Shown here: one piece after another, positions 16,983 to 56,370 of the stretch
Position numbering within the stretch: position 1 is the stretch's first letter
Layout of the letters: the number at the start of each line of letters is the position of its first letter
From: Nitrospirota bacterium
Lineage (GTDB): Bacteria; Nitrospirota; UBA9217
Direction of reading: 5' to 3'
DNA: 64,000 nt
Assembly: GCA_023229435.1 (NCBI GenBank)
Contig: JALNZF010000012.1
Coordinates: 30,086-94,085 of the forward strand
Made by a program: the position numbers and the translations under genes
Notes under the pieces: generated by a model
What the model was told of the DNA's origin: nothing
Databases searched by the model: none
The model's input: the letters and a program-made list of their open reading frames with translations, nothing else

Positions 16983-17050
16983 ATAGAACCGAGAAAGCTA
17001 GTAAACTCATTCGCAAGTTACAATTTGCAAAAAACAGGAGCCCTTCAAAC

Positions 17051-18676: not shown

Positions 18677-18736
18677 CAGTAGTGCTATTATATTTTACTT
18701 CATATACTCAGTACAGGGTTTATAAATGGAACTATA

Positions 18737-22674: not shown

Positions 22675-22870
22675 CGCATCATACCCCGGAAGGGGGCGAT
22701 GAAGAACGCTACCCAATGCTTTTTAGTAACCGAGGAATCAAATTCTTCTCAGGATGAAAAGAATATTTTGCCGTAAAAGGCACAGAGAACTAAAATAAAC
22801 TGGAGCTTTTTCTTACCGGTGAATCGGCTTCTCTTTGTGCTCCAGGTGAATTCTATGGCGGAGGTTGACG

Positions 22871-24457: not shown

Positions 24458-24559
24458 ACCCTTTCGCATGAACGTTGAGAGATCAAAGCATGACGCCTTG
24501 CAGTCCGGTTTATTCAGTTATACTGTCCCATCGTTTGCTCAAGATTCTGGAGGTTAAGG

Positions 24560-26479: not shown

Positions 26480-26516
26480 CAGCAATTAATTCACCGGGGA
26501 ATACGAACAGTACAAA

Positions 26517-28895: not shown

Positions 28896-28928
28896 TAGAA
28901 ACATCGTGCGCAATTCATCAGGGGACAA

Positions 28929-31837: not shown

Positions 31838-32457
31838 TGTGTCTCCGGAGGAGAACAAGCGAAAGGAAGCGCGAGAAAAGGTAAGAACGACAGCGGCAGT
31901 AAGTAATGCAGGTTGCCCCCATTTGTTCCTTCCAGAGAGAGAAGTTCATCCCCTCCGTCAACCTATAAAGAGCTTTTCACCGCGGCATGTTTTATCGCAA
32001 CTTCTTTAAAGTCCGATCCCAAGAAAAAGAGCAATTAAACCCCGGCTTGTTTTTCCTCCGTGATTTTTGCGCCTTCTGCAGCATGCTCCCGTTATTACTG
32101 ATTGCATAAACAGTTACATGGTGGAATCACCATGCTGAATCGGTCTTATCGCTAAGCATAGATTCTATAACTACGTTTTTAAGTGCCAACATATTGTTAA
32201 ATAATTGTTTTTTGAAAGCAATTAAGTGGCATGCCGGTTGCAATACATAAGAGCAAATACAGAAAAGTCACTTGTGCATCAAGAACCCGGTTATCAAAGA
32301 AAATAGGATTTAAATAAAAAGAAAAGGAGGTGTCGTAACAATCCAAGTAGTAGAAACAGCTGTAGCGAAGTCAGATGAGAACAAAATGCAACAAGAAGTG
32401 GAAAACAGGTTGTTTGGTACAGCTGATAAAGTAATCAGCACATGAAGTCCTCCGAAA

Positions 32458-32519
32458 AAGGTAAACCCATCGTAAGGTGGGGACACAAAGACACGGGTCC
32501 TGATAAGCAGGATGGCCGG
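32458..32519 (+). promoter_or_regulatory. GEMM-I-like (cyclic-dinucleotide) riboswitch candidate in the 5' leader of an OmcS-like gene
   Basis: AAGGUAAACCCAUCGUAAGGUGGGGACACAAAGACACGGG parallels the GEMM-I P1 core GGCAAACC-AUUC-GAAA-GAGUGGGACGCAAAGCC. CCCAUC/GGUGGG forms the stem around a GNRA (GUAA) tetraloop, followed by GGGAC.CAAAG. A second hairpin lies downstream (UCCUG-AUAAG-CAGGA; GGCCGG-UUUG-CCGG), 45-105 nt upstream of the ATG at 32564. Confidence 0.4.
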
Positions 32520-32563
32520 TTTGCCGGAAGAAAAAATTAAAAATTTTTTGGAGGAATACACTA

Positions 32564-33868
32564 ATGAAGATCAAATTTAGTATTATCATGGTCGCAGCAA
32601 TCGCGATCATATGCGGACTCAGCGGAACAAGCTTCGCGTTCCATAGCGGCGGCGTCGCAGAGTGCGAAGGCTGCCATTCGATGCACAACAGCTTCGAGGG
32701 TACGACCAACGTCACCGGCCGCACCTTTGCACAGGGCACGGGCCCCTATCTCTTGAAGGCCAATGACCAGGGCGGCACCTGCCTCAACTGCCACAACGCG
32801 GCTGATACAGTAGCCACCAGCTACCACATCTCCACGAACGGCATCACCGCCTATGACAGCACCGTACCGGTCGAAATGACCCCGGGCGGCGACTTCGCCT
32901 GGCTCAAGAAGACCATGAGCTTCATTGTTCGCGGCAACACCAATACCCAGGTCGGCGATCACAAGGGCCACAGCATCGTAGCCGCTGACTATGGCTATGC
33001 TGCAGACCCCGACCTTACCGTAGCGCCGGGCGGCACTTATCCGGCCGGCAACCTGGCCTGCTCCTCCTGCCATGATCCTCATGGCCGCTATCGCCGCGAC
33101 GCAACGGGCGCCTATGCCACCACGGGTCTCCCGATCTTCAACAGCGGCTCCTACACCAGCAGCAAAGACCCGATCGCGGGCGTTGCCGCAGTCGGCGCAT
33201 ACCGTATCCTCGGCGGCAATGGCTATCTGCCGAAGTCCCTTGCCCTCTCCGGGACACCGGCCTTCACGGTCGATCCGATGGATGTCGTTGTTGCCTCGAC
33301 CTACAACCGTTCAGAAGCAACCAGCCAGACCGGTATCGCCTATGGTAAGAACGTAGCTGAGTGGTGCGCAAACTGCCACACCGGCATGCTCCAGGGCACC
33401 TATACCTCCGGCATGGCAGGCCTTCGTCACCCGGCCGGCAACGGCGCCAAGCTGACCGCGGACATCGTGGCCAACTACAACGCCTATGTCTCCTCGGGCA
33501 TCATGACCAACACAGGGAATGCGTTCAGCACCCTGGCGCCGTTTGCAACAGACACCAATGATCGTACAGTCCTCAAGTCAGCGGCTACAAACACCACGAC
33601 CAGAGTTGCAACCACGGGCGACAACGTAACCTGCCTCTCCTGTCACCGCGCACATGCGACGGCCTTCGAGAGCATGCTCCGTTTCGCCTACAGCAACGAG
33701 TTCATGACCGCAGCAGACTCCACCAACGCCGCGATCTACGACTCAGTCAACGGCAAGGGCACTGGCTACAGCGTAGCGCAGCAGACAAATGCATACTATG
33801 GCCGTCCGGCCACAGCATTCGGGCCGAACGCCCGCGTGTTCTGCAACAAGTGCCACGCGAAAGACTAA
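32564..33868 (+). CDS. OmcS-like hexaheme c-type cytochrome (nanowire-type subunit family)
   Basis: 434 aa. GGAGGAA RBS. Signal peptide ending ...TSFA|FHSGGVAECEGCHSMHNS. Six CXXCH motifs (CEGCH, CLNCH, CSSCH, CANCH, CLSCH, CNKCH). Family blocks GGDFAWLKKT, GHSIVAADYGY, PGGTYPAGNLACSSCHDPHGRYRR, AYRILGG, WCANCH, CLSCHRAHATAFESM and C-terminal CNKCHAKD match my recollection of G. sulfurreducens OmcS. Confidence 0.8.
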   Translation: MKIKFSIIMVAAIAIICGLSGTSFAFHSGGVAECEGCHSMHNSFEGTTNVTGRTFAQGTGPYLLKANDQGGTCLNCHNAADTVATSYHISTNGITAYDSTVPVEMTPGGDFAWLKKTMSFIVRGNTNTQVGDHKGHSIVAADYGYAADPDLTVAPGGTYPAGNLACSSCHDPHGRYRRDATGAYATTGLPIFNSGSYTSSKDPIAGVAAVGAYRILGGNGYLPKSLALSGTPAFTVDPMDVVVASTYNRSEATSQTGIAYGKNVAEWCANCHTGMLQGTYTSGMAGLRHPAGNGAKLTADIVANYNAYVSSGIMTNTGNAFSTLAPFATDTNDRTVLKSAATNTTTRVATTGDNVTCLSCHRAHATAFESMLRFAYSNEFMTAADSTNAAIYDSVNGKGTGYSVAQQTNAYYGRPATAFGPNARVFCNKCHAKD

Positions 33869-34388: not shown

Positions 34389-35684
34389 ATGAAAATTCTC
34401 AAGATTATCTTGGCGAGTTTGCTGCCTATGGCCTTTGTTATCGCAATGGAAGGCGGCTCAGCCGCTTTTCACGCGGGAGGCGTCGGTCCGTGCGAAGGTT
34501 GTCACAGTATGCATAACTCCGTCGACGGCATGCAGATCAATCCGCTTGCGCCCGCCTATCTCCTGAGACAGCAGGACCCCAGCTCCACCTGCCTGTCCTG
34601 CCACGAGCACGCGGGAGATCCCGGCCCCACGACGTACCATGTCAGCACGCCGGTCAATGAACTCCTGCCGGGCATACCCCCGAAGCAGCTCACTCCGGCT
34701 GGAGATTTCGGATGGCTTAATAAGACATTCTCGTGGGTTTCAAACCCAACTTCAGCCACGGCCTATAGCTATGGAGAGCGGCACGGGCACAATATCGTGG
34801 CAGCTGATTATATGTACGATGCCGACAGCACAAATACCACTGCCCCGGGCGGCACCTATCCCGCGAATAGCCTTGGCTGCATCAGCTGCCATGATCCCCA
34901 TGGAAAATACCGGCGGAATCTGGACGGCTCAATAACGACGACAGGGCGTCCTATCGCCGATTCAGGCTCCTTCGCTTCCAGCCGCGATCCCGACAGCGGC
35001 ATGTCAGTCGGTGTTTACCGGATGCTGGGCGGACAGAACTATCGGCCCAAGTCACTGATCGGCGGTCTGGCCTTTGTGAACGACCCGCCCGCCGCCGTGG
35101 CGCCGGACCAGCCCAACCGGTCGGAGGCAGCAACGCAGACCCGCGTTGCTTATGGGGCCGGGATGTCGGAGTGGTGCATAAACTGCCACCCCAACATGCA
35201 AGGCGGAGGAATGACGGGCCACCACATCGCGGGCTCCACGGCAAAGCTCGGCGCCGTGAAGGCGGACAACTACGCCAAATATGTCAAGACCGGCGATCTC
35301 TCGGGATCGTGGGCAACTTCCTATCTTTCGCTCGTTCCCTTCGAAGAGGGAACAACGGACTATTCAACCCTCAAGGCCCATGCAAAGACCGATGATTCGG
35401 TGCTCGTCGGTCCCAACGGAACGACCTCCCAGGTGATGTGTCTTACCTGCCACCGGGCGCACGCATCAGGGTGGGACCACATGACGAAGTGGAACACCGG
35501 GACCGACTACATCGTTTATAACGGATATTATTCTCAGGAGGGACAAGCGTATCAGCCCTACGGGCAGGGACGAACGGAAGCCGAAGCAACGCGGCCGTAT
35601 TATGACAAACCCGCGGGAAAATTCGCCCTGAACCAGGACGCCCTCTGCAATAAATGCCATAACGGAAACTACAGGGGCATGTGA
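34389..35684 (+). CDS. OmcS-like hexaheme c-type cytochrome (tandem paralog)
   Basis: 431 aa. Signal peptide ...GSAA|FHAGGVGPCEGCHSMHNS. Six CXXCH (CEGCH, CLSCH, CISCH, CINCH, CLTCH, CNKCH). Same family blocks: AGDFGWLNKT, GHNIVAADYMY, CISCHDPHGKYRR, VYRMLGG, WCINCH, CLTCHRAHASGWDHM, CNKCHNG. Confidence 0.8.
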   Translation: MKILKIILASLLPMAFVIAMEGGSAAFHAGGVGPCEGCHSMHNSVDGMQINPLAPAYLLRQQDPSSTCLSCHEHAGDPGPTTYHVSTPVNELLPGIPPKQLTPAGDFGWLNKTFSWVSNPTSATAYSYGERHGHNIVAADYMYDADSTNTTAPGGTYPANSLGCISCHDPHGKYRRNLDGSITTTGRPIADSGSFASSRDPDSGMSVGVYRMLGGQNYRPKSLIGGLAFVNDPPAAVAPDQPNRSEAATQTRVAYGAGMSEWCINCHPNMQGGGMTGHHIAGSTAKLGAVKADNYAKYVKTGDLSGSWATSYLSLVPFEEGTTDYSTLKAHAKTDDSVLVGPNGTTSQVMCLTCHRAHASGWDHMTKWNTGTDYIVYNGYYSQEGQAYQPYGQGRTEAEATRPYYDKPAGKFALNQDALCNKCHNGNYRGM

Positions 35685-36026: not shown

Positions 36027-37427
36027 GTGAAAGCGCTCATAATCATCGTGTTTGCTTCTCTGCTGACATCAGGCTGCGCTGCGCTTCCGTCAACGGTAAA
36101 GCCATTGCTCGAGGATGAGGGCGAAGTTTCCGTATACCTTGAGCCTCTTCCCCAGGCGGCGGCGAATTTGAAGTTCACGATCGACCGTCTCTCCCTCGTG
36201 GCCGGCGACGGCACGGAATTTCCCCTCCTCCTTGCCATGTCCGATATCCAGGGCAACGACGTGCGAAGACAACGGTTTCTTGCCGCGGGCCGCGTGCCTC
36301 CGGGGCAGTATAGCGGACTATCGTACGGGGTCGTAAAAGCCGCGCTCCGGGGTGAGGAAGGAGAGGCGGCCCTTCTCGTACCCGAAGCGCCGGTGAGGAT
36401 CCCCCTCTCCTTTGAAATCGGCCGCAAGAAGGTTGTTGTCCTGTCTCTGTCGTTCCGGTACGAGGGGTCCGTCCAAAAGGGATTCAGCTTCACTCCGCAG
36501 TTCTCCCTCTTCATCCCCGGCATGCCGGTGAGCGGCCTGGCGGGGTTCACTGTTAACGGGGGCGACAACACCGTCACCGTCTTCGACAAAAAGGCAGGAC
36601 AGGTCGCGGCGATCATCGCCACGGGCAGGGTGCCCGAGGCCATTGCCCTGGACCAGAAGGGCCGGCTGGCATATCTCTCCCTCGGGGAGGATGACGCCAT
36701 CGAGGTGATCGATATCACGGATGGAACGTTCATCAACAGAGTGAACCTGAGGACCGGCGACGGGCCCCGCGAGCTGGCGCTGACTCCCGACGGAAAGCGC
36801 CTGCTGAGCCTGAACGCCCGCTCCCGCACTGTCAGCATCATCGATCCTGCCTCGGCGATCGAACTCAACAGGGTCCCGGTGGGAGAGGGGCCCCGCCGGC
36901 TCCTGGTCAGCCGGACCGGGGAGCGGTGCTACGTGTTCAACAGCCGTTCAGATACCATTTCGGTCATCGACATCGCCAACAGCGCCATCGTCGCGACGAT
37001 CTCCACGGAGCCCGGCCCCTTGATGGGCCAGTTCAACCGCAAAGGCGACCGGCTCTACGTGGTCTATGAGGGGAGCCCCTATCTCTCGGTCATCGATCCC
37101 TCCTCTCTTTCTGTTGTCAAAAGGGTGTTTGTCGGCCATGGGATCAGCGTTATCAAGACCGATACCCTTACCGATCTTCTGTACGTCTACCGGGGCGGGG
37201 ACTCGCGGATTGAGGTGTATGAGCCCTTCTCCCTCATCCCGATCGATTACATCCCGGCCGTGAGCGACATCGCGGACATGACCATCGACAGCGAAACGAA
37301 CAATCTCTTCGTTGTCAGCGTTGAAAAGAACACACTTCTGTCCATCAGCCTGATGAGTAAAAAGATCGTTGCGGAAATCGATACCGGCGGGCGCCCGGCG
37401 TGGGTGGCGGTCATGGGGCAGCGATAG
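36027..37427 (+). CDS. lipoprotein with YVTN-family beta-propeller repeats
   Basis: GTG start. Signal + lipobox-like LLTSGC. The C-terminal ~300 aa carries repeated 40-residue YVTN-type blades (TGRVPEAIALDQKGRLAYLS; TGDGPRELALTPDGKRLLSLNARSRTVSIIDPAS; VGEGPRRLLVSRTGERCYVFNSRSDTISVIDIANS; LYVVYEGSPYLSVIDPSS). Confidence 0.65.
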   Translation: MKALIIIVFASLLTSGCAALPSTVKPLLEDEGEVSVYLEPLPQAAANLKFTIDRLSLVAGDGTEFPLLLAMSDIQGNDVRRQRFLAAGRVPPGQYSGLSYGVVKAALRGEEGEAALLVPEAPVRIPLSFEIGRKKVVVLSLSFRYEGSVQKGFSFTPQFSLFIPGMPVSGLAGFTVNGGDNTVTVFDKKAGQVAAIIATGRVPEAIALDQKGRLAYLSLGEDDAIEVIDITDGTFINRVNLRTGDGPRELALTPDGKRLLSLNARSRTVSIIDPASAIELNRVPVGEGPRRLLVSRTGERCYVFNSRSDTISVIDIANSAIVATISTEPGPLMGQFNRKGDRLYVVYEGSPYLSVIDPSSLSVVKRVFVGHGISVIKTDTLTDLLYVYRGGDSRIEVYEPFSLIPIDYIPAVSDIADMTIDSETNNLFVVSVEKNTLLSISLMSKKIVAEIDTGGRPAWVAVMGQR

Positions 37428-37430
37428 ACC

Positions 37431-39683
37431 ATGGGCCGGAACAATGAACATTATTTTATTGTATTCATGCTGTTCAACCTGCTTCTCCTGCAGGGGACGG
37501 CATATGCGGACGTCTTCACGGGGTCCGCGGAATTGTTCGAACAGATCGGCAGGACAAACAATGTTACGTCCGAGGGGCTGACGTCGGTCACCAAATCGAC
37601 CTATTTTTTACAGCGGTATAAACTTGACTACCATAATTCGATCTATCCGCAGGTCTTTCTGCGGGCTGGAGTGCGTCTGGAAAAGCAGGCCGTAAACAGT
37701 GACCTGGACGGCTTCACGAGCAGGCAGCATTCCACTGTCTTGATGCCCTCGGCCGGCATCACGCTCGCAAATCCCTTTGTCGTTTTCGGGGCCGGCTACG
37801 ACGAGCGGGATGAAAAGGTGGAGTCAGGGGGAAGTTCATTCAGGACCTTCCGTGAGACGAACAGCGCCTTCCTGGGGCTCAGGCCTGAGGGACTTCCCAC
37901 GGTGGACCTCATCTACAGCGGACAGAAGCGGTATGACGCGGACCGCGCATCGATCGACCAGGAGAATCGGCTGTTTTCCCTGAATACGATGTACCGGCCG
38001 GTCAGAAGTGTACAGCTCTCTTACAATACCTCCTACGAGGACAACGAACAACATATAGCGCGGATCGAAACGCGCGTGCTGAGCCAAAGCGCGCGAGCAG
38101 GTTATGCAGACCGGTTTTTCAAGGATAGAATGTCTTTCGCAACCAATTACAATCTTACCCGTCAGGATGTGCAGTATACCAGGGCCGGCACGGGGGCGGT
38201 GGTCCAGACGCAGATCTTCCCCCTGGCCGGGCTCTCAGCCATTAATGACCAGCCGAACATCGGCGTCCTGAACTCAACTCCTGCGCTGATCGACGGCAAT
38301 TTCACCGCAAGCAGCGGTATGAACATAGGACAGACCCCCTCCCTGGGGGGCGATATCAAAAAAAGGAACGCGGGACTGGACTTCGGGCTCCCTCTCGCAG
38401 TCAGCACCCTGTTCGTCTGGGTTGACCGGCAGGTTCCGGCCGATGCGGCCAATTCCTTTGTCTGGGAAATCTATGTCAGCCAGGACAACCAGACTTGGAG
38501 CCTCCATCAGACGGTCTTTCCCGCGGATTTCGGCGCGTTCGACAACCGGTTCGAGCTCTCCTTCGCCGGCGTAAGCACCCGGTACATCATGGCAGTGACG
38601 AGGCCGCTGTCCGTGGCAGTCGTCCCGCCGCCGGGCGTGGATGTAAGCAATATTTTCATCACCGAGCTCCAGGCCTTCAATGACCAGGCCGTCTCGCTGA
38701 CCGCCGGGACCGCGAACAAAACAGCGCTGAACTCAGCGTCCCTGGACGTGAACACGAAAGTGAATATCATCAGGAGCGACCGGTATGCGCTCTTGTACGA
38801 CCTCTATTATGTGGAGAGGACTGCTGATCAGACAGGACAGCCTTTGCGCCGCGCGAGCACGCTCACCAATGCCCTTATTGCGAACGAGAAGTTCAACAGG
38901 GTGCTTACCGGCAACGCCAGGATCATGCGCCAGGACGATAATGCTGTGGGCGAGGGTTCGTCGACCACCTATGATTACGCAGCCTCCCTTACAGCCTCGT
39001 GGGCGTCCCTCCCGAAGCTGAGCCACATTGCCGTGCTGTCCGGAAAACGGGAGGATTTTGTTGACAAACATATTGTGAAGGACTCGGGAAGCCTGTCGCT
39101 GACCAACACCGCCGAGGTCTATCCGGGAATCAACGCCTATCTGGGCGGCATAGAGACCCTTGTTTCATCGAAGTCGGATGAGGCGATCGTACACACTGAG
39201 AGCTCCCTGGTTTCATTCGGCACCAACATGGTTCCCCACAGGACAATGACCGTAAATTTAAATTATGACTGGTCGGAAGCGGTACAGTGGGGAAGCGACG
39301 CAAGCCTTGTGCCTGCCGGCGTCGCGGTATCGAGAAGACAGAGCATGCTCGCAAGCCTCGCCTATAACCCGCTCGGCAGCCTCTATCTTTTCAGTTCGAT
39401 CCAGAGAATTGAGGAGAAGGGCAAGGAAGGAATCACCTCCACCGTCTTCAGCGGATCGTGGTCGGCCCAGCGCACCGGAGGCGCTCTCGAACTGCGGTTC
39501 AATTACGCCGATTATGTCGAGTCCGAGGCGAGGACGAGGACGCGCAATTACGGTCCGTCGGCACGATGGAAGATAAACGCGAGTGCCTTTCTCGAAGTCG
39601 CATACACAATCGCGACCATTGATTCTCCGCTGAATACTCAGGAATCGACTGCCCTGAACGCCAATTTTAAAATGACCTTTTGA
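37431..39683 (+). CDS. large outer-membrane beta-barrel protein (750 aa)
   Basis: Signal peptide (..LLLLQGTAYA|DV). Alternating amphipathic strand pattern throughout. Abundant Y/N/S/T/G. C-terminal ...ALNANFKMTF ends with a terminal Phe, the OMP beta-barrel signature. Size is compatible with a 26-28-strand barrel. Confidence 0.65.
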   Translation: MGRNNEHYFIVFMLFNLLLLQGTAYADVFTGSAELFEQIGRTNNVTSEGLTSVTKSTYFLQRYKLDYHNSIYPQVFLRAGVRLEKQAVNSDLDGFTSRQHSTVLMPSAGITLANPFVVFGAGYDERDEKVESGGSSFRTFRETNSAFLGLRPEGLPTVDLIYSGQKRYDADRASIDQENRLFSLNTMYRPVRSVQLSYNTSYEDNEQHIARIETRVLSQSARAGYADRFFKDRMSFATNYNLTRQDVQYTRAGTGAVVQTQIFPLAGLSAINDQPNIGVLNSTPALIDGNFTASSGMNIGQTPSLGGDIKKRNAGLDFGLPLAVSTLFVWVDRQVPADAANSFVWEIYVSQDNQTWSLHQTVFPADFGAFDNRFELSFAGVSTRYIMAVTRPLSVAVVPPPGVDVSNIFITELQAFNDQAVSLTAGTANKTALNSASLDVNTKVNIIRSDRYALLYDLYYVERTADQTGQPLRRASTLTNALIANEKFNRVLTGNARIMRQDDNAVGEGSSTTYDYAASLTASWASLPKLSHIAVLSGKREDFVDKHIVKDSGSLSLTNTAEVYPGINAYLGGIETLVSSKSDEAIVHTESSLVSFGTNMVPHRTMTVNLNYDWSEAVQWGSDASLVPAGVAVSRRQSMLASLAYNPLGSLYLFSSIQRIEEKGKEGITSTVFSGSWSAQRTGGALELRFNYADYVESEARTRTRNYGPSARWKINASAFLEVAYTIATIDSPLNTQESTALNANFKMTF

Positions 39684-39733
39684 GGATGCCTGCGCGAAAA
39701 AACGGATCTCATAGGCGAACATTGGAGAAAAAA

Positions 39734-40324
39734 ATGAAGAACTACAAAAATGGCGGGAACCTTCTTTGCGTGACCGTACTGCTGGCTGTTATCATCACCG
39801 CGGCCGGCTGCAAATCCCAGTCTCTGGAGGTGTATCGGGACCAGAAAATGGACATAGGATCGATCTATACCGTTGCCGTCATGCCTTTGGTGAACCTGTC
39901 GAGGGACCAGATGGCGGCGGAACGGGTGCGGGATGTGTTAATAACCATGCTCCTTGCCGACGGTCGCGTGTACGTGATCCCGACCGGAGAGGTCGCCCGG
40001 CAGGTCTCCATGGTCGGGATCTTGAATCCCTCCCTGCCCACGAACGAAGAGGTCATAAAGCTCGGAAAGGCGCTGAAGGTCCAGGGGATTCTAACCGGAA
40101 TGATTAAGGAATATGGTGACGTGAGAGCGGGCTCAGCTACCGCGAATGTCATATCGATAAGCATGCTGCTGACGGAAGTCGATACCGGGAAGGTCGTCAG
40201 CTCCGTGTCATCCACGAAAGGCGGCATCGGTTTTTTTGAACGCCTTTTCGGCGGAGGCGGCGAACCGATGAACGTTGTTACGACAAAGGCAATTAAGGAT
40301 GTCATCAATAAACTTCTTCAATAA
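39734..40324 (+). CDS. small lipoprotein with CsgG/LpoB/TolB-N-like alpha/beta domain
   Basis: ORF open from 39680. ATG at 39734 preceded by GGAGA. Lipobox ITAAGC. Mature domain IYTVAVMPLVNLSRDQMAAERVRDVLITMLLADGRVYVIP..GILTGMI follows the 'kiAV.PF.N.s......g..la..l...L...g.f.V' pattern of the CsgG/LpoB/DUF799 superfamily. Confidence 0.55.
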   Translation: MKNYKNGGNLLCVTVLLAVIITAAGCKSQSLEVYRDQKMDIGSIYTVAVMPLVNLSRDQMAAERVRDVLITMLLADGRVYVIPTGEVARQVSMVGILNPSLPTNEEVIKLGKALKVQGILTGMIKEYGDVRAGSATANVISISMLLTEVDTGKVVSSVSSTKGGIGFFERLFGGGGEPMNVVTTKAIKDVINKLLQ

Positions 40325-43300
40325 AGAGCGGTTGCTCGTCGTTGCCTGCGCCCTCTGCCTCGTCGGGCATGCGGCCTCCCTGCAACCCGCTTACGCGGTC
40401 GAGACCCTGCGCAAGGCCCCGGCGAAAGTCACCCTGAGTCCTCTCGCTAAGATCCACGAGGGAAGCGCCAGGGCAGGCATGACCATTGCCAGGGCCCCTC
40501 AGGCGATAACGTTTGACCCGCTTGAGACACGGCCCTACAGCAAGACGCCGTTCTTTCTTGCCGCCACGGTTTCCAGCGGCCTCCGCGTCACCTACACAAG
40601 CTCCAATGCCGCTGTCGCAACCGTCAGAGGCAACAAGGTGACGATCACGGGCGTCGGAACGACAGAGATCACTGCCTATCAGCGCGGAAACAGGAACTAC
40701 CATGCGGCGGAGCCGGTAACGCGGGCTCTGACGGTGAACAAGGCCAAAGCCAAAGTCACCCTGAGCCGTCTCGCTCGAACCTACGACGGCGCGCCGAAAT
40801 CCGTCAAGGCCTCGACGAACCCGAAAGGCCTGGTCGTGGGCATCGCCTACGACGGGAATGCCTCGGCGCCCGTCAATGCCGGACGATACACGGTGACAGC
40901 CACGGTCCGGGACGCCAACTACGAGGGAAGCGCCGAGGCCGGCATGATCATAGCGAAGGCGCCTCAGAAGATCGCCTTCAATGCCCCGACCGCGCGGACA
41001 TACGGCGATGCGCCGTTCGATCTGGTTTCCACCTCGTCCAGCGGCCTCACGACAACCTACGCAAGCTCCAATCCCGCTGTCTCGGTCATCAGCGGCAATA
41101 AGGTGACGATCACGGGCGCGGGATCGACCGTGATCACCGCTTTTCAGGGGGGGGACGGCAACTACCTTCCTGCGAAACCAATGCAGCGGATACTGACCAT
41201 TGCGAAGGCGGAACAGACAATTGCGTTCGATGCCCCAACCACCGTGACCTACGGCGTCCTTGATTTTTCTCCCAAGGCATTGGCGAGTTCGGGCCTTCCC
41301 GTGGTCTACGAAAGCTCGGACCCCTCGGTGGCCGTTGTCGTCGGAAACCAGGTCCATATCATCCGCGCCGGCGCATCGACGCTCATTGCGTCGCAGCCGG
41401 GAGACGACAACTATCTCGCGGCAAAGCCGGTAACGCAGGCGCTGACGGTGAACAAGGCCAAAGCCGAAGTCTCCCTCATCGGTCTCGATCAGACCTATGA
41501 CGGCGCACAGAAGCAGGCCGGGGCCAGGACCGAGCCTGAAGGCCTGAGCGTCACCCTGACCTACGACAAGAAGGCAACGGCGCCCGCGAAGGCGGGCAGC
41601 TACGCGGTCATCGGCACGGTTCGGGACACCAACTACGAGGGAAGCGCCACGGCAACGCTGAACATTGCGAAGGCTCCCCAGACGATAGCGTTCGATGCCC
41701 CGGTCACCGTGACCTACGGTGTCGTTGATTTTTCTCCCAAGGCATTGGCGAGTTCGGGCCTTCCCGTGTTCTACGAAAGCTCGGACCCCTCGGTTGCCGT
41801 TGTCATCGGAAACCAGGTCCATATCGTCGGCGCAGGCGCATCGACGCTCACTACATCGCAGCCGGGAGACGACAACTATCTCGCGGCAAAACCGGTAACG
41901 CAGGCGCTGACGGTGAACAAGGCCAAAGCCGAAGTCTCCCTCATCGGTCTCGATCAGACCTATGACGGCGCTCAGAAGCAGGCCGGGGCCAGGACCAAGC
42001 CTGAAGGTCTGAGCGTTACCCTGACCTACGACAACAAGGCAACGGCGCCCGCGAAGGCGGGCAGCTACACGGTCATCGGCACGGTACAAGACGCCAACTA
42101 CGAGGGTAGCGCCACGGCAACGCTGAACATTGCGAAGGCGGGTCAGACGATAGCGTTCGATGCTCTCACAACACGCACCTACGGCGACGGGACGTTCGTC
42201 CTTGCCTCCACGGTGTCGAGCGGCCTTACCGCGAGCTACGGGAGCTCCAATCCGTCTGTCGCGATTATCAGCGGCAACCAGGTGAGAATTGCGGGGGCTG
42301 GAACTGCCGAGATCACTGCCTATCAGGATGGAGATGGCAACTACCTTGCCGCAAAACCGGTGATGCAGGCGCTGACGGTGCATAAGGCCAAAGCCGAAGT
42401 CTCCCTCATTGGTCTCGATCAGACCTATGACGCCACACAGAAGCAAGTCGGGGCCAGGACGGACCCAAAAAACCTGAACGTTGTGTTCCTCTACGACAAT
42501 AATGCAACGGCGCCCGCGAAGGCGGGCAGCTACGCGGTCGTCGGCACGGTACAAGACGCCAACTACGAGGGCAGCGCCTTCGCAACGCTGACCATTGCGA
42601 AGGCCGGCCAGAAGATCGCCTTCGATGCCCCGCTCACCGTTACCTACGGCGACGCCGACTTTTCTCCCGGGGCAAGGGCGAGTTCGGGACTTCCCGTGTT
42701 CTACGAAAGTTCGGACCCGTCAGTGGCCATTGTCGTCGAAAACCATGTCCATATCATCAGCGCGGGCTCATCGGAACTCATTGCGTCGCAGCCGGGAGAC
42801 GACAACCACCTTGCGGCGGCGCCGAAAAAGCGGAAGCTGGCGGTGAAGCGGGCCGCTCAAACGATAACGTTTCCCGCCCTTGAGGCAAGGCCTTACAATA
42901 AGGTCCCGTTCTCTCTTGAAGCCGCGGCGTCCAGCGGCCTGACCGTTGCTTGTGAAAGTTCGAATGACGATGTCGCAACGGTGAACGGCAACCAGGTGAC
43001 GATCAGGGGTGTTGGTACAACGACGATAACGGTGTTTCAGTCAGGGGACGGCAATTATCTGGCAGCAGCCCCGGTGAAGCAGGTCTTGACGGTGCGGAAG
43101 GCCCCCGCAAACGTAACGCTGGGCGCTCTGAAGCACATCTATGACGGGAAGCCGAAATCAGCGGCGAGCGAGACCAGACCGGCCAGACTTTCCGTGACGT
43201 TCACCTACGATGGAAGTGATAAACCGCCGGTCAATGCCGGAAGCTACTCGGTCGCAGCCACTGTCCGGGAAGACAACTACGAGGGGACCGCCACCGGGAC

Positions 43301-45026
43301 GATGACCATCGCGAAGGCCGCCCAGAGGATCACGTTCGATCCCCTGATCACGATGACCTACGGCGACAGGCCGTTCTATCTTTTTTCCGAGGTGTCCAGC
43401 GGTCTCATCCCCGCTTATGAAAGCTCGGGTCCCGCTGTTGCGATCGTGACCGGCTCACGCGTGACGATCGTGGGAGCCGGGACCGCGACCATCACGGCTT
43501 CCCAGGCCGGGGACAACAACCACCTTGAAGCGGAACCGGTGGGGCGGACATTCATCGTGAAAAAGGCCCCTCCGCTGATCACGCTGAACGGTCTGGAGCA
43601 CAGGTATGATGGAACGCCAAAACCGGCTGCAAGCATGACCTCACCCGCCGGCCTCAGCGTGCACATCACCTACGATGGAAATCCGGTTGCCCCCGTCAAG
43701 GCGGGACAATACGAAGTGATTGCCGCGGTCCAGAACCCCAACTATGAGGGAAGTGCGTCAGGCACAATGTCCATAGCCAAGGCGTCCCAAAAGATAAAAT
43801 TACCTGTCCTTGGGGTCAAAACCCTGGGGACCGGACCCTTCGAGCTCCCCGCCGTGCTGCCCAGCGGCCTTGCTGTTGACTACGAAAGCTCCGATCCGAC
43901 CATTGCGACCGTCAGCGGCAACCAGTTGACGGTCAGGGCCGTCGGGACCGCGACGATCACCGCATTTCAGGAGGGGGACGGCAACCACCTGCCGGTAGAG
44001 CCGGTGATGCGGCCGCTGATCGTGCTCGCTCAAAAGCTCCGTATCGTCGTATTTCCCGTGAAAAATCTGAGCGGGAGACCTGCGCCCCTGAAGGAGATCC
44101 GTCAATCGCTCATTGAGGCGCTGGCCCGCCGGGGAGACGTCGTACTCGACGACGAAGCGATGCTGCAGTTCATGACGCGTCACCGCATACGGTATACCGG
44201 CGGCGTCGATATCCTCACGGCCAGGGCGTGGAGGGAAGAGACGGGAACGGAGGCAGTACTCATCGCCTCGGTGGACCAGTATAAAGATTCCGAGGTGCCG
44301 AAGATCTCGCTTACCTGCCGTCTCGTTTCTACCGGGGAGATGCCGCGCATCCTGTGGATGGAGAGCATCGGATTGTCCGGCGACGATTCACCCGGTCTGT
44401 TCGGAAGCGGGTTGATAGGGCAAATCGGGCCCCTCCAGAACAAGGCCATCAAGCAACTCATGGACTCCCTGTCCGCATTCTACGCGGATAGAATATCCCC
44501 CCCGGCGGAAAAGGGCTGGGTCATGGAGGTATTCAAACCAAAGAAGTCCTCTGAAACGCCGTTTATCGATCCCGACCGGACCTACAAGGTCGCTATCATG
44601 CCGTTCTACAACAGTACCAAGAACTCGAATGCCGGCGAGATCCTTGCGCTGCGGTTCATGAGCCAGCTGGTCAAGAACGGGGCCTTTGATGTCCTTGAAC
44701 CCGGCGTGGTCCGGCAGAAGTTCCTGGACTACAGAATCATCATGAATGACGGCATTGCCAGGGCCGATGCGGAAAGTTTTTTTATCAACCAGAAAATGGA
44801 CCTGATTCTTATGGGCAAGATCATCGACTACCAGGAAGGCAATCCAGATATGGAGTTCGAAGTGCAGGTCTATAACAGAAAAAGCAAGTCAATGGCCTGG
44901 TCGTCGTGGAGCTACAATCGCGGCAACGATGCCATGCTCGTGTTCGACTGGAACCGGGTGAGCAACGTCGCAGAACTGGCATCGCAGATGGTAAAGACCA
45001 TTATCCGGGACATGATGACGGAATGA
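40299..45026 (+). CDS. giant (1,575 aa) secreted repeat protein: alternating Ig-like and MBG domains with two C-terminal CsgG/LpoB-like domains
   Basis: ORF open from 40275. The ATG at 40299 gives signal peptide MSSINFFNKERLLVVACALCLVGHAASLQPAYA and overlaps the upstream lipoprotein gene by 26 nt. About 7 units of [Ig-like: TYGD.PF.L.A..SSGL.V.YESSNP.VA.V.GN.V.I.GAG...ITA.Q.GDGNY..A.PV] + [MBG: KA.V.L..L..TYDG..K.........L.V...YDG....P..AG.Y.V.ATV.D.NYEGSA...L.IAKA]. The C-terminal ~330 aa has two CsgG/LpoB-like blocks (LRIVVFPVKNLSGRP..; YKVAIMPFYNSTKNSNAGEILALRFMSQLVKNGAFDVLEP). Confidence 0.75.
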   Translation: MSSINFFNKERLLVVACALCLVGHAASLQPAYAVETLRKAPAKVTLSPLAKIHEGSARAGMTIARAPQAITFDPLETRPYSKTPFFLAATVSSGLRVTYTSSNAAVATVRGNKVTITGVGTTEITAYQRGNRNYHAAEPVTRALTVNKAKAKVTLSRLARTYDGAPKSVKASTNPKGLVVGIAYDGNASAPVNAGRYTVTATVRDANYEGSAEAGMIIAKAPQKIAFNAPTARTYGDAPFDLVSTSSSGLTTTYASSNPAVSVISGNKVTITGAGSTVITAFQGGDGNYLPAKPMQRILTIAKAEQTIAFDAPTTVTYGVLDFSPKALASSGLPVVYESSDPSVAVVVGNQVHIIRAGASTLIASQPGDDNYLAAKPVTQALTVNKAKAEVSLIGLDQTYDGAQKQAGARTEPEGLSVTLTYDKKATAPAKAGSYAVIGTVRDTNYEGSATATLNIAKAPQTIAFDAPVTVTYGVVDFSPKALASSGLPVFYESSDPSVAVVIGNQVHIVGAGASTLTTSQPGDDNYLAAKPVTQALTVNKAKAEVSLIGLDQTYDGAQKQAGARTKPEGLSVTLTYDNKATAPAKAGSYTVIGTVQDANYEGSATATLNIAKAGQTIAFDALTTRTYGDGTFVLASTVSSGLTASYGSSNPSVAIISGNQVRIAGAGTAEITAYQDGDGNYLAAKPVMQALTVHKAKAEVSLIGLDQTYDATQKQVGARTDPKNLNVVFLYDNNATAPAKAGSYAVVGTVQDANYEGSAFATLTIAKAGQKIAFDAPLTVTYGDADFSPGARASSGLPVFYESSDPSVAIVVENHVHIISAGSSELIASQPGDDNHLAAAPKKRKLAVKRAAQTITFPALEARPYNKVPFSLEAAASSGLTVACESSNDDVATVNGNQVTIRGVGTTTITVFQSGDGNYLAAAPVKQVLTVRKAPANVTLGALKHIYDGKPKSAASETRPARLSVTFTYDGSDKPPVNAGSYSVAATVREDNYEGTATGTMTIAKAAQRITFDPLITMTYGDRPFYLFSEVSSGLIPAYESSGPAVAIVTGSRVTIVGAGTATITASQAGDNNHLEAEPVGRTFIVKKAPPLITLNGLEHRYDGTPKPAASMTSPAGLSVHITYDGNPVAPVKAGQYEVIAAVQNPNYEGSASGTMSIAKASQKIKLPVLGVKTLGTGPFELPAVLPSGLAVDYESSDPTIATVSGNQLTVRAVGTATITAFQEGDGNHLPVEPVMRPLIVLAQKLRIVVFPVKNLSGRPAPLKEIRQSLIEALARRGDVVLDDEAMLQFMTRHRIRYTGGVDILTARAWREETGTEAVLIASVDQYKDSEVPKISLTCRLVSTGEMPRILWMESIGLSGDDSPGLFGSGLIGQIGPLQNKAIKQLMDSLSAFYADRISPPAEKGWVMEVFKPKKSSETPFIDPDRTYKVAIMPFYNSTKNSNAGEILALRFMSQLVKNGAFDVLEPGVVRQKFLDYRIIMNDGIARADAESFFINQKMDLILMGKIIDYQEGNPDMEFEVQVYNRKSKSMAWSSWSYNRGNDAMLVFDWNRVSNVAELASQMVKTIIRDMMTE
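41221..42180 (+). repeat. two near-identical 480-bp tandem repeat units inside the giant gene
   Basis: 41221-41700 and 41701-42180 are almost identical at nucleotide level (each encodes one Ig-like + one MBG unit, e.g. KAKAEVSLIGLDQTYDGAQKQAGART.PEGLSVTLTYD). A third, more diverged unit follows (42330-42600). Confidence 0.7.
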
Positions 45027-45203: not shown

Positions 45204-46961
45204 ATGAAAGCAAGGTACGGAGTACTGGGTTTATTCTTATTGTTGGGTATGGTTGCGGGGAGCACGGCATCGGCCCTTGAGGGATCGAAGCCGGCGGTTG
45301 CCAGTCTCGGCACCGGCACGACCGCACCGGAGGGGCCCCAGGTCTTGGTGAGGGCGCCGCTTTTCTCGCCCCTCTTCGAACGGATACCCCTCGCCGCGGT
45401 CAACGGCGATCAGATCACCATGGGTGACGTCGCGAATGCGCTGGTCGCCTCCCATGAAGAACAGGACCCTGCGAAGAAGCAGGGCGGAGGAAAGCTAGAT
45501 TATGGGAAGGTCCTGGACCGGCTCATCAACGTGAGGCTCATCGTACAGGAATCGACCGCGATCGGATTTGACGAGCTGCCCGAATTCAAAGCCTCCGTGG
45601 AGGACTATTCGACGCAGGCCCTCGCAAGGCTCCTGATGCAGGATGCCACGAAGGACGTGAAAGCGGACCCTGCCGAGGTGGAGAAGCGCTATAAAGCCGC
45701 CATGGTAGAATGGAAGATAAAATCGATTTTTTTTGAGAACGAGGACGACGCCAAGAGCATGGCAGATGGGCTGAAGGCGGGAAAGAGCTACGAGGAAATG
45801 GCGGAAAAGGCCATTGCCGATGGAAAAACGAAAGGGGTCCAGGAGGGAAGTTTCGTGAAACCCAAGGATCTGGCCCCTCACATCATGGCGGCGGTTGCCG
45901 CGATGGAGACCGGATCTGTCAGTCCCATCATCAAAGCGCAGGGCGATAAAACCAGCGGATTCACGGTCCTCAAGCTCGTGGAGAAGCGATATCCCGAGAA
46001 CGCCGAGACAAGAGATCAGGTGGAGTGGTCGGTTCTGGCCGAGCAAAGGACCCGGGCGTGGGAGGAGTTCAAGACATCACTCGTAACGAAATACGTGAAG
46101 ATCAATAAAAGGACCCTCGACAAGCTGGACTACGACGGGTCCATCGATAAGTTCCCGCGGCTGCTGGAGGACGAGAGGGTGGTCGCCGAGTTCAAGGGGG
46201 GAAAGCCGATCACCGTCGGCGAGCTTACGCAGGCGCTTCAACAGAAATTCTGGCACGGAGTGGAGGAGGCCGCCAAGTCAAAAAAAATCAACAAGATGAA
46301 ACAGTACACCCTGTCCGAGCTCATCGGGCTGCGCGTAATAGCAAAAGAAACGTCGGAGCGGGACCTCGCTAGGAGAGAGGAATACCTGAAGGAGTTCAAG
46401 CAGTATAAGGACTCAACCCTCTTCGGGCTGTTCGTCGAACGGGTGGTCCTCCCCGACATTAAGGTGACGGAGCCTGACCTGCAGGCGTATTATGAGAAAC
46501 ATAGGCTGGAATTTCAGTACCCGGAGATGGTGAAGATGTCCAGCATCGCCTTCGGGAGCAAGCGCGCTGCCGAGGCCGTCCGCGCGAAGCTGGCAAAGGG
46601 CACGGACCTCGCCTGGGCGAGGAGCAACGCGGAGGGAGTCGCGGGCAAGAGCGAGGACGACCCCCTCTCCTCCCTGAACGGAAGCATCCTGTCCGTGAGA
46701 AGCCTGCCCCCCGGCATGGCCAAGGCCGTCTCAGGGAGCCACGCGGGAGAGTACCTGCTCTATGAAGGGTCCGAGGACCGGTTCTACGTTCTGTCCATCG
46801 AGGCGATCATACCCGCGAGGCAGCAGCCTTATGATGAGGTCAAGGAGGAGTTTCGGGAGAAGGTCTTTCAGGAAAAGTTCATCCAGGCGATGGATGACTG
46901 GTTTTCCAAGCTTAGATCGGCCAGCAAGGTAACGGTCTATCTTTCGGAAACAGGGAAATAA
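45204..46961 (+). CDS. periplasmic SurA/PpiD-like chaperone (parvulin-type PPIase-like)
   Basis: 585 aa. AGGAGG RBS. Signal peptide. N-terminal SurA-N-like segment (AAVNGDQITMGDVANALV). The C-terminal region has a degenerate PpiC/parvulin-like block (MVKMSSIAF..KRAAEAVRAKLAKGTDLAWARSNA). Sits immediately upstream of the two large multiheme cytochromes. Confidence 0.5.
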   Translation: MKARYGVLGLFLLLGMVAGSTASALEGSKPAVASLGTGTTAPEGPQVLVRAPLFSPLFERIPLAAVNGDQITMGDVANALVASHEEQDPAKKQGGGKLDYGKVLDRLINVRLIVQESTAIGFDELPEFKASVEDYSTQALARLLMQDATKDVKADPAEVEKRYKAAMVEWKIKSIFFENEDDAKSMADGLKAGKSYEEMAEKAIADGKTKGVQEGSFVKPKDLAPHIMAAVAAMETGSVSPIIKAQGDKTSGFTVLKLVEKRYPENAETRDQVEWSVLAEQRTRAWEEFKTSLVTKYVKINKRTLDKLDYDGSIDKFPRLLEDERVVAEFKGGKPITVGELTQALQQKFWHGVEEAAKSKKINKMKQYTLSELIGLRVIAKETSERDLARREEYLKEFKQYKDSTLFGLFVERVVLPDIKVTEPDLQAYYEKHRLEFQYPEMVKMSSIAFGSKRAAEAVRAKLAKGTDLAWARSNAEGVAGKSEDDPLSSLNGSILSVRSLPPGMAKAVSGSHAGEYLLYEGSEDRFYVLSIEAIIPARQQPYDEVKEEFREKVFQEKFIQAMDDWFSKLRSASKVTVYLSETGK

Positions 46962-46991: not shown

Positions 46992-48956
46992 ATGCAAAAC
47001 GTTTCGATAAAACAGCGCGTCTTTGCCCTTGGAGCGGTCTTTTTTCTGTGCGTTTTCCTGCATGCCGCGATCGGGACGGCGGCGCAGCAATCCGCCCGCA
47101 AGGATTGTCTGGACTGCCACACCAAGTTCTCGGAAAAGTATCTCGGGATGAAAAATGTTCATGCTGTCGTGAAGGAGAAACATTGCGAGGGCTGCCATCT
47201 CCGCCACGGCCTCGTGGCCAGACTGATCCTCAAGCAGGTCGGGAACGAGCTCTGCCAGTCCTGTCACACGAAGGACAAGATGGGCATGAAGCCGATCGTG
47301 CATACGGCCCTGAAGGGGGGGAAATGCACGGACTGCCACAACCCGCACGCCTCCCCGATGGACCATCTGTTGAAGGTGGAGGGAAAGGATCTGTGCTATC
47401 AATGTCACAAAAAAGAGGACTATGAAAAGAAAACAGTGCACGCGGTCCTGAATACAAAGGGCTGCGCCGCCTGTCACTCTTCCCACAGCGCTGACGAGAA
47501 GAACCTCCTCGTCAAGCCGGAGACGCCCCTCTGCCTGTCCTGCCACGACAGCGGCAATTCCGCGTTCAGGAAGGCCCATGGTACGTATCCCGTGCAGACG
47601 AAAACCTGCACAACCTGCCATAATCCCCACTCCTCGGACCAGCCGAAGCTCCTGAAGACGAGCGCGCACAACCCCGTCGTCACCGCGAGCTGCGACATGT
47701 GCCATAACGCGCCGAATACCGACAAGGCCTTCGGCGTGAAGGAAGGCGCCATCGGCGCTCTCTGCGGCCAGTGTCATATGTCCGACGACCTGAAGGCAGG
47801 CGGCACGGTGGAGCACATGCCCTTTAAGGACGGGATGTGCGACCAATGTCATAATCCCCACGCCTCGGAGAACCCCAAGCTTCTGAATAAAAGCGTCAAC
47901 AAGCTCTGTTTCGACTGTCATGCGGACAAAGGGGCACGGGTTGCCTTCCCCCATGCGGCTGTCGAACAAGGGTGCCTGTCCTGTCATCTGCCCCATGCCG
48001 CAAAGAACGAGCGGTTGCTGAGGGCAAAGACGAGCGACATCTGCTTCACCTGTCACGAGAAAGTGAAGGAGGCGCAGAAAGCCAAGCACGTCCATTCGCC
48101 CTTCGCCGAGGCCATGTGCACCACATGCCATAATCCGCACGGTTCGAACTTCCCGCTCATGTCCAGCAACGGCATGGACAAGACCTGCTACTCGTGCCAC
48201 AACGACGCGGAGACGGGATTTGCGAAAAAAACCGTCCATGCGCCTGTGCGGGAAGGACGGTGCCAGTCGTGCCATGACGGCCACGGCTCATCAGAGGGGA
48301 AGATGCTCATAGCCCCTGCGGGGCCGAAACTCTGCGGACAGTGCCACGGCGACCTTATGAAAGAGTCAAAGGACAATATCGTCCATCAACCCTTCGGGAA
48401 AGGCCTTTGCCTGGATTGCCACTCCCCCCATGCCAGCGACAACGCGGGTATGATCGTCAAGGACCAGGGGTCCCTCTGTCTTACCTGCCACGCGGCAATG
48501 GGGAAGCAGATCAAGTCGTCCGCGGATGTGCATAAACCCATTGAGACCGGCATGTGTACGAAGTGTCACAGCCCCCACCAGGCGAAGCTTGCCAAACTGT
48601 TGTTGGCGCAGTCGCCTGATATCTGCCTCGCCTGCCACAAGGACCTGAAGGAGCGGATAGAGAAGGAGAACAAGCACCAGCCCGCAGCGGGCGACTGCCT
48701 GACCTGCCACCTGCCGCACCTGTCGTCGCAGCGGAGGCTGCTCTCCGACGCGGTGCCGTCGCTCTGCCTCCAATGCCACGAAGCAACGGCAGCTTCATTC
48801 AGGAAGGCCCACATCAATATTGACGCCGCCGTTATGGAGTGCACAAGCTGCCATGACCCCCATGCGTCAAAGGACCCGAAGTTATTCAAGAAACATGTGC
48901 ATGCCCCCTTTGCGGGCAGATCATGCGATGAATGTCACATCGTAAAAACACAATAG
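46992..48956 (+). CDS. multiheme c-type cytochrome, ~26 CXXCH motifs (doubled-CXXCH type)
   Basis: 654 aa. GGAGA RBS. Signal peptide. I count 26 CXXCH motifs, mostly in the periodic C..CH.PH(A/S)S pattern (CTDCHNPHAS, CTTCHNPHSS, CDQCHNPHAS, CLDCHSPHAS, CTSCHDPHAS). Confidence 0.85.
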   Translation: MQNVSIKQRVFALGAVFFLCVFLHAAIGTAAQQSARKDCLDCHTKFSEKYLGMKNVHAVVKEKHCEGCHLRHGLVARLILKQVGNELCQSCHTKDKMGMKPIVHTALKGGKCTDCHNPHASPMDHLLKVEGKDLCYQCHKKEDYEKKTVHAVLNTKGCAACHSSHSADEKNLLVKPETPLCLSCHDSGNSAFRKAHGTYPVQTKTCTTCHNPHSSDQPKLLKTSAHNPVVTASCDMCHNAPNTDKAFGVKEGAIGALCGQCHMSDDLKAGGTVEHMPFKDGMCDQCHNPHASENPKLLNKSVNKLCFDCHADKGARVAFPHAAVEQGCLSCHLPHAAKNERLLRAKTSDICFTCHEKVKEAQKAKHVHSPFAEAMCTTCHNPHGSNFPLMSSNGMDKTCYSCHNDAETGFAKKTVHAPVREGRCQSCHDGHGSSEGKMLIAPAGPKLCGQCHGDLMKESKDNIVHQPFGKGLCLDCHSPHASDNAGMIVKDQGSLCLTCHAAMGKQIKSSADVHKPIETGMCTKCHSPHQAKLAKLLLAQSPDICLACHKDLKERIEKENKHQPAAGDCLTCHLPHLSSQRRLLSDAVPSLCLQCHEATAASFRKAHINIDAAVMECTSCHDPHASKDPKLFKKHVHAPFAGRSCDECHIVKTQ

Positions 48957-56253: not shown

Positions 56254-56370
56254 GCTGCTCCTTAAAAAACCGCGACAGAACAATGTGATACACATTCACT
56301 GTTCAATCGTTCTTGTCCTGTTGACCCTGTTGCACCCAGGTAAGTATGGTAAAGCATCATCATTCGTCCA

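Follow-up and report, generated by a model that had tools for sequence, protein, structure and literature searches.

Four genes at 36027-45026 of a 64,000-nucleotide (nt) stretch of DNA from a Nitrospirota bacterium (contig JALNZF010000012.1; hereafter the window, to which all positions refer) are best explained as orthologues of oscD, oscE, oscF and oscG. These genes specify a conserved machinery encoded beside the filament-forming OmcS-type hexahaem cytochromes, and the window combines them with a stalked variant of OscG; the probability of this reading is put at about 80%. The system itself is already published (2025), and the stalked OscG is its distinctive variant. A first-pass annotation of the same DNA had viewed the set as a giant adhesin served by an anchor of a new, dedicated kind and as "not a described secretion or anchoring system". 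The second description is superseded by passages of two papers in which the products of oscD-oscG are proposed to serve the secretion and morphology of OmcS nanowires (PMC13194489; bioRxiv 10.1101/2025.11.06.686851). The first gives way to orthology: the usual OscG is a lipoprotein of ~375 amino acids (aa) made of two C-terminal domains only, and the giant protein of the window is an OscG orthologue that gained a repeat array. The alternative raised by the annotation, namely that the genes provide the route of cytochrome filaments to the surface, matches a published hypothesis.

Probable identity with the osc system

The osc genes form the omcS companion operon of Geobacter sulfurreducens. Proposed roles, as summarized in passages of PMC13194489 that cite Shen et al. 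(2025, Cell Chem Biol 32:239), include folding for OscH, secretion for OscE, OscF and OscG, and morphology for OscD. The same paper equates oscC with GSU2501, oscI with GSU2495 and oscJ with GSU2494; therefore, oscD-oscH correspond to GSU2500-GSU2496, and the window genes D, E, F and G are matched to OscD, OscE, OscF and OscG. Geotalea uraniireducens carries the eight-gene block GSU2500-GSU2493, which is linked to OmcS nanowire maturation and secretion in the relevant passages of a preprint that likewise cites Shen et al. 2025 (bioRxiv 10.1101/2025.11.06.686851). GSU2495 is described there as a ~70 kDa protein with 26 haems, and the OscI of the window (26 CXXCH motifs, 71 kDa) fits this description.

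Judged by sequence similarity and gene order, the region 30848-51211 is collinear, gene for gene, with the osc block of Geobacteraceae. The G. uraniireducens Rf4 locus (L038) encodes, in order, an NHL protein, a hexahaem cytochrome, a 474-aa propeller, a 726-aa protein, a 196-aa GNA1162-like lipoprotein, a 374-aa lipoprotein, a peptidyl-prolyl isomerase (PPIase), a 26-haem cytochrome, a 16-haem cytochrome and a second NHL protein. By BLASTP, the window genes D to K and the upstream NHL gene are all homologous to their positional counterparts (33-59% identity), with values of 49% for D over its full length, 33% for E, 51% for F and 45% for the C-terminal 330 aa of G. The gene of the 374-aa lipoprotein overlaps the preceding gene by 29 nt. 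The order NHL, omcS-like, propeller lipoprotein, barrel, small lipoprotein, two-domain lipoprotein, PPIase, 26-haem, 16-haem and NHL is likewise common to the window and the G. sulfurreducens osc cluster. The differences are that the window OscG has 1,575 aa rather than ~375, with 9 immunoglobulin (Ig)-like and 6 MBG domains and no lipobox Cys, that the window has two omcS-like genes whereas G. sulfurreducens has omcS, omcT and oscC, and that the host is an uncultured bacterium. Despite its size and the missing lipobox Cys, the window protein keeps the two domains and is a variant of OscG, not a non-member.

The cytochromes encoded upstream are OmcS-like over their full length (Table 1). The N-terminus of cytochrome 1, FHSGGVAECEGCHSMHNS, is nearly identical to that of OmcS, and the stretch FHSGGVAECEGCH(S/T)MHNS at the N-terminus of the OmcS-like cytochromes is almost identical to OmcS.

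The synteny set comprises 37 loci from species-representative genomes, which were scanned with the motif I[FY][IV]TE[LVI]Q[AS]F; this motif missed Geobacter. According to their record titles, the loci belong to Nitrospirota, Thermodesulfobacteriota and other "delta proteobacteria", Acidobacteriota, Deferrimicrobiaceae, Rokuibacteriota, Schekmanbacteria and others. The nearest species-representative genome is a Nitrospirota metagenome-assembled genome, with an OscE identity of only 38%. The D-E-F-G order, whose absence from all related genomes would have refuted the proposal of the first-pass annotation, is kept in 34 of the 37 loci. Of the remaining three, two are cut by a contig end, and in the third a TPR protein and an omcS-like gene stand between E and F. 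An omcS-like gene directly precedes D in 33 loci, and the complete D-K block is found in 19. In four loci (L007, L009, L023 and L026) oscH-I-J is detached and found upstream in inverted orientation, although the NHL, omcS-like and D-E-F-G genes still form an intact unit; this arrangement suggests that the osc block consists of two separable sub-modules.

Homologues of the individual proteins are numerous. A search with the C-terminal region of OscG returns hundreds of ~375-aa proteins, many of which are named "TolB-like protein" by JGI, and the G. uraniireducens protein bears the UniRef name "Lipoprotein". Among the best 120 matches of a search with the Geotalea OscG, the only named genomes are G. 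uraniireducens and G. daltonii. For OscE, 165 or more homologues were found, none of which carries an annotation.

Gene anatomy of oscD-oscG

The four co-oriented genes recognized at the outset, for a propeller lipoprotein, a 750-aa barrel with a C-terminal Phe, a small lipoprotein and a giant repeat protein, are all real open reading frames (ORFs) on the plus strand. Their tight packing is upheld by the 26-nt overlap of F and G; the D-E gap is 3 nt rather than the 4 nt first given, and E and F are separated by 50 nt when OscF starts at its ATG. Start codons at TTG 39680 (listed for OscF) and TTG 40275 (for OscG) were rejected in favor of the more likely ATG 39734 and ATG 40299, respectively. 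Each ATG provides a proper signal peptide and agrees with the public gene calls of the same contig, listed at ENA as ERZ27247322 contig k141_498184, where OscF and OscG have lengths identical to the ATG-start versions. An antisense ORF of 749 aa (40305-42554, minus strand) lies opposite the stalk repeats of OscG; it is taken to be non-coding because it is wholly inside the OscG coding region.

PelC-like domains of OscF and OscG

Profile comparisons and structural models identify a PelC-like lipoprotein domain that is present once in OscF and twice in OscG (d1 and d2). The early observation that the giant protein ends in two copies of the domain of the small lipoprotein is confirmed by hhalign profile-profile alignment, which relates OscF to d2 at 98.8% probability (E 8e-17), d1 to d2 at 97.1% (E 5e-11) and OscF to d1 at 90.5% (E 1e-6). 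Pairwise BLAST gives a weak match of OscF to d2 (1.7e-4) and no match of d1 to d2. An AlphaFold2 (AF2) model of the C-terminal 330-aa region of OscG has a mean predicted local distance difference test score (pLDDT) of 80 and a predicted template modelling score (pTM) of 0.84, and it folds into two alpha/beta domains of shared topology.

The CsgG/LpoB-like nature of these domains, proposed in the first reading of the DNA, also stands, and their fold group is LpoB/GNA1162/CsgG/PelC. OscF matches the Pfam family LpoB (PF13036) at 24.7 bits, with a cut-off of 22.3, and the OscG C-terminus is assigned by Foldseek. PelC ranks best for OscG (PDB 5t0z, 5t10, 5t11 and the PelBC complex 9h80; E 4e-8 to 1e-6, target-normalized template modelling (TM) score 0.66-0.80), followed by GNA1162 (4hrv, TM 0.71) and then by CsgG, LpoB and the N-terminal domain of TolB. 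The OscG C-terminus alone has no match in Pfam; its profile search against PDB sequences yields PelC weakly (E 0.017), and such searches return no structure of OscE or OscG in the PDB. An identity with the CsgG curli channel was rejected, as neither OscF nor OscG has a CsgG match in Pfam and the Foldseek matches to CsgG (E 1e-4, TM 0.36-0.47) are weaker than those to PelC.

The stalk of OscG

The window OscG carries a stalk of ~1,200 residues between its signal peptide and d1. The first description of ~7 pairs of Ig-like and MBG domains is right as to the make-up of this stalk and is corrected in number, to 9 Ig-like and 6 MBG_3 domains. The 465-nt tandem unit within the stalk is a recent expansion. 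The signal peptide is homologous to the lipoprotein signals of other OscG proteins (…FFN+…), with a His in place of the lipobox Cys: the residues at this site are LVGH in the window, LAGC in Geotalea, TSGC in the relative L041 and VGY in L040. Most OscG homologues keep the lipobox, whereas the window OscG is without it. MBG-extended OscG proteins are also found in close relatives, one with 1,087 aa and another with 519 aa or more (the contig ends within the latter); thus, the array is a lineage trait of variable copy number.

The architecture of OscG was surveyed in the 150 best representatives at 50% identity, with an extension or insertion counted when longer than 150 aa. Plain proteins account for 115 (77%), an N-terminal extension is present in 21 and an insertion between the two domains in 14, such that ~23% bear beta-sandwich arrays; a C-terminal extension is found in none of the 150. 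The added parts are always beta-sandwich arrays, and the domains noted among the 35 extended proteins are Calx-beta (14), PKD (11), Y_Y_Y (10), Big_13 (10), BiPBP_C (9), He_PIG (6) and MBG_3 (5). The OscG of L022, for example, is a 947-aa protein composed of a lipobox, d1, five Calx-beta domains and d2, and further extended examples are seen in L011, L031 and L037. The lipobox is kept in many of the extended variants and lost in several. OscG is, in short, a hot spot for the gain of beta-sandwich arrays (L011, L012, L022, L031, L037; L009, L019; P0333-P0468). The largest OscG representative found has 1,936 aa. In L011, L031 and L037 the giant OscG genes are broken into several reading frames, and frameshifts introduced in the repeats during assembly are the probable cause.

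These data bear on whether the set is dedicated to the surface display of a giant Ig/MBG adhesin, in which the PelC-like domains would form a periplasmic retention plug and the stalk would thread through OscE. Such a role is unlikely. The MBG_3 and Big_2 domains are typical of surface adhesins, fifteen beta-sandwich domains would exceed the width of the periplasm, the window OscG has kept its signal peptide but not its lipid anchor, and the extensions are never C-terminal, which is consistent with a fixed C-terminal anchor. The 77% of OscG representatives that are stalk-free, however, occur with the same E-F-G genes, and the system therefore did not evolve to display a stalk. Moreover, the lipobox is kept ahead of the stalk in L041 and P0334, and Calx-beta arrays lie between the PelC-like domains elsewhere. 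Arrays tethered at both ends in this way, by the lipid and d1 or by d1 and d2, argue for a position on the same membrane side as the PelC-like domains, and this speaks against a surface adhesin with a new anchor; the stalk of the window OscG may lie in the periplasm or reach the surface.

Known routes of adhesin export do not account for OscG. As first annotated, the protein has no LPXTG, PEP-CTERM, type 1 secretion system (T1SS)/RTX or type 9 secretion system (T9SS) signal and no autotransporter barrel of its own: only MBG_3 and Big_2 are detected in Pfam, and nothing relevant in NCBIfam. Autotransporter, inverse autotransporter, T1SS and T9SS adhesins were rejected on this basis and because the C-terminus consists of two PelC-like domains. 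The retained adhesins of the LapA/LapE type are similar in that a long beta-sandwich array is joined to a small domain that might lodge beneath a channel of the outer membrane. By contrast with these adhesins, OscG has no T1SS signal, RTX repeats or TolC-like channel, its anchor is C-terminal and PelC-like, and most members of its family are free of repeats.

The OscE barrel

A structural model of OscE (pLDDT 83, pTM 0.55) shows 11 strands followed by a beta-rich insert at aa 257-420; another 17 strands come after it, giving a predicted barrel of ~28 strands with a backbone diameter estimated from geometry at ~5 nm. No match to OscE was detected by Pfam or NCBIfam scans or by profile searches against PDB sequences. 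The top structural match is MtrB, at a TM of 0.33-0.37 and 7-9% identity, barely over generic barrels. The model thus points to a generic large-barrel similarity without family assignment. A TonB-dependent receptor, the assignment that the first-pass annotation had named as incompatible with its proposal, was rejected: OscE has no Plug or TonB_dep_Rec match in Pfam/NCBIfam, its strands begin at residue 29, right after the signal peptide, and the TM is ~0.2.

The insert, which resembles the jelly-roll of CBM32 and F5/8 type C domains, is the best-conserved region of OscE (motifs ALIDGN and IFITELQAF) and, searched alone, has no match in Pfam. Its invariant residues include those of IFITELQAF as well as D317 and W356. 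It is probably extracellular, because it is placed after an odd-numbered strand of the predicted barrel. A carbohydrate-binding fold is unexpected in a proposed exporter of cytochromes.

Structural similarity to MtrB raises an alternative in which OscE is the sheath of an MtrAB-type porin-cytochrome electron conduit; OscI and/or OscJ would insert from the periplasm and pass electrons to the OmcS filament, with OscF and OscG stabilizing the periplasmic rim. MtrCAB and related porin-cytochrome complexes (PDB 6r2q) are comparable to the osc set in that a very large barrel is encoded among multihaem cytochromes for extracellular electron transfer. The conduit is nevertheless rather doubtful. OscE has no sequence-family match, MtrB-family Pfam model included, to set beside its low TM and identity values, the CBM32-like insert and PelC-like partners are found on the osc side, and an MtrA-like decahaem gene is not adjacent; the multihaem OscI and OscJ of the block are not MtrA-like neighbors. 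H-I-J is detached and inverted in four loci where D-E-F-G stays with omcS, and I/J are less tightly linked to E than E-F-G are to omcS. Genetics cited in passages of PMC13194489 also place OscE, OscF and OscG in secretion. An MtrAB-like conduit is compatible with an OscE that also mounts the filament.

The PelC-like domains of OscF and OscG, together with the CBM32-like fold of the most conserved part of OscE, also hint at a reading in which OscE, OscF and OscG, in the way of Pel, export or bind a polysaccharide that is needed to hold the filaments, and do not export the cytochrome itself. TPR-bearing membrane proteins flank the block, a few of them with matches to PMT_2/YfhO-like glycosyltransferases, and homologues of one flank osc blocks elsewhere. 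A polysaccharide function is very unlikely, however: no polysaccharide synthase or polymerase is encoded inside the conserved block, the linkage to omcS-like genes, PPIase and multihaem cytochromes is invariant across phyla, and the cited work reports effects on OmcS secretion. OscG reportedly also interacts with OmcS.

Proposed mechanism

The mechanism by which cytochrome nanowires traverse the outer membrane and stay fixed to it is called speculative in PMC12307469 and unanswered in bioRxiv 10.1101/2025.10.22.684050. The latter preprint summarizes the hypothesis of a porin-like pathway or mounting and notes large barrels and propeller lipoproteins beside the OmcS and OmcE genes. In the PelBC exopolysaccharide exporter (PDB 9h80), twelve PelC lipoproteins are arranged as a ring where the PelB barrel faces the periplasm (PMC12141448). 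The osc set is similar to PelBC in the PelC fold of OscF and of both OscG domains, and in the location of these genes beside that of an outer-membrane barrel.

By analogy, a ring-on-barrel mechanism is proposed for the osc proteins. The OmcS-like subunits would be exported by Sec, loaded with haem and handled in the periplasm by the PPIase OscH. OscF and OscG would form a PelC-like ring at the periplasmic rim of the OscE barrel, and the OmcS subunit or growing filament would pass through, or be mounted on, the wide OscE pore. The Ig/MBG array of OscG would not be an independent adhesin but an accessory stalk or spacer, which the C-terminal domains tie to the OscEFG complex. This model, an analogy as it is, agrees with the porin-like pathway hypothesis. 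It is distinct from the chaperone-usher pili (PapC/FimD), as OscE is without an usher plug, usher N- and C-terminal domains and a Pfam usher match, and the osc helper is a PPIase and not an Ig-fold chaperone.

Several points weigh against the osc reading and the mechanism built on it. The functional assignments of OscD-OscG are second-hand, taken from passages of papers that cite Shen et al. 2025, and the link to G. sulfurreducens runs through the Geotalea sequences and statements in two citing papers. The mechanism of nanowire secretion and anchoring is described as 'still speculative' (PMC12307469). The ring-on-barrel model is an analogy drawn from fold alone, the closest structural match of OscE, MtrB, houses a cytochrome rather than exporting it, and a simple PelC-like ring explains neither the missing lipobox nor arrays whose length far exceeds the width of the periplasm.

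A further proposal concerns the arrays themselves. The OscG arrays (MBG/Ig in the window; Calx-beta, PKD, Y_Y_Y and Big_13 elsewhere) might be functional stalks of the nanowire machine that were gained repeatedly at two permissive sites, are held by the PelC-like ring and reach through or around OscE. There they would act as tethers, either for the OmcS-type filament or between the cell and minerals or partner cells. This proposal is an unlikely one; if true, OscEFG would be a platform for both export and anchoring such as has not been described for any filament system. The window adds nothing on the existence of the osc system. What it offers are handles on assembly and anchoring, namely the PelC-like fold of OscF and OscG, the CBM32-like insert of OscE and the stalk-like arrays present in about a quarter of OscG representatives.

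The osc block and its surroundings

The osc block of the window is complete, its two OmcS-like genes are headed by a cyclic-dinucleotide riboswitch, and its host is not a Geobacter (Table 1). The riboswitch precedes the first omcS-like gene by 35 nt; no further copy was detected ahead of oscD or of the other omcS-like gene.

Table 1. Features of the osc block in the 64,000-nt window
Feature	Position	Strand	Description and evidence
Secreted NHL-like protein	30848-31837	+	329 aa; 42% identical to its positional counterpart in Geotalea uraniireducens, a 322-aa NHL protein; conserved immediately ahead of the omcS-like gene(s), with a copy in most of the 37 loci
Cyclic-dinucleotide riboswitch aptamer	32451-32529	+	GEMM-I clan (c-di-GMP-I-GGC); Rfam RF03167, 69.2 bits vs gathering 59, full length
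OmcS-like hexahaem cytochrome 1	32564-33868	+	434 aa, 6 CXXCH; PDB 6ef8 (OmcS) E 2e-128, all 407 mature-chain residues aligned
OmcS-like hexahaem cytochrome 2	34389-35684	+	431 aa, 6 CXXCH; PDB 6ef8 (OmcS) E 8e-133, full length
oscD (D)	36027-37427	+	466 aa; lipobox LTSGC; N-terminal domain and YVTN/YncE beta-propeller; Pfam YNCE, NCBIfam beta_rpt_yvtn
oscE (E)	37431-39683	+	750 aa; predicted outer-membrane beta-barrel, ~28 strands; signal peptide ending AYA|D; C-terminal Phe
CBM32 / F5-8 type C-like jelly-roll insert of OscE	38199-38690	+	aa 257-420, after predicted barrel strand 11
oscF (F)	39734-40324	+	196-aa lipoprotein, lipobox AAGC; single PelC/LpoB/GNA1162-like domain; Pfam LpoB
oscG (G), giant variant	40299-45026	+	1,575 aa; signal peptide without lipobox Cys, stalk, two PelC-like domains
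OscG stalk	40398-44024	+	9 Ig-like (Big_2-like) and 6 MBG_3 domains; Pfam MBG_3 (E 7e-147, 6 stretches) and Big_2; motif counts
Tandem array within stalk	41193-42817	+	465-nt unit (one Ig and one MBG), 3.5 copies, 80% identity; Tandem Repeats Finder
OscG PelC-like domain 1 (d1)	44040-44486	+	AF2 model; Foldseek (PelC, GNA1162); hhalign
OscG PelC-like domain 2 (d2)	44541-45020	+	AF2 model; Foldseek; hhalign
oscH, periplasmic PPIase (Rotamase_2)	45204-46961	+	Pfam E 1e-25; 42% identical to the 585-aa PPIase of Geotalea
oscI, 26-haem cytochrome	46992-48956	+	71.2 kDa; 26 CXXCH; 59% identical to the 658-aa protein of Geotalea
oscJ, 16-haem cytochrome	48967-50298	+	58% identical to the 427-aa counterpart of Geotalea
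oscK, NHL-repeat beta-propeller	50303-51211	+	Pfam NHL; 44% identical to the 303-aa protein of Geotalea

The block is preceded by ten consecutive co-oriented genes (11379-30557, plus strand) for proteins of 530-790 aa, eight of which have C-terminal TPR domains and two of which have weak PMT_2 or YfhO matches. An eleventh TPR protein of similar size is encoded after the block (51445-53268, plus strand), and homologues of this gene flank osc blocks in at least eight loci (L001, L002, L011, L021, L022, L031, L036 and L037). Farther upstream, two adjacent genes on the minus strand (4964-7981 and 8057-11071) encode paralogues of ~1,005 aa that match fused MFS/spermidine-synthase models (NCBIfam NF037959, E 1e-35 to 1e-40). 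Outside the osc block, a cytochrome with only a weak doubled-CXXCH match is encoded at 55111-56295 (minus strand), and a second cytochrome, with c7-type 'nanowire_3heme' domains (TIGR04257, E 8e-32), is encoded at 56721-57860 (plus strand).

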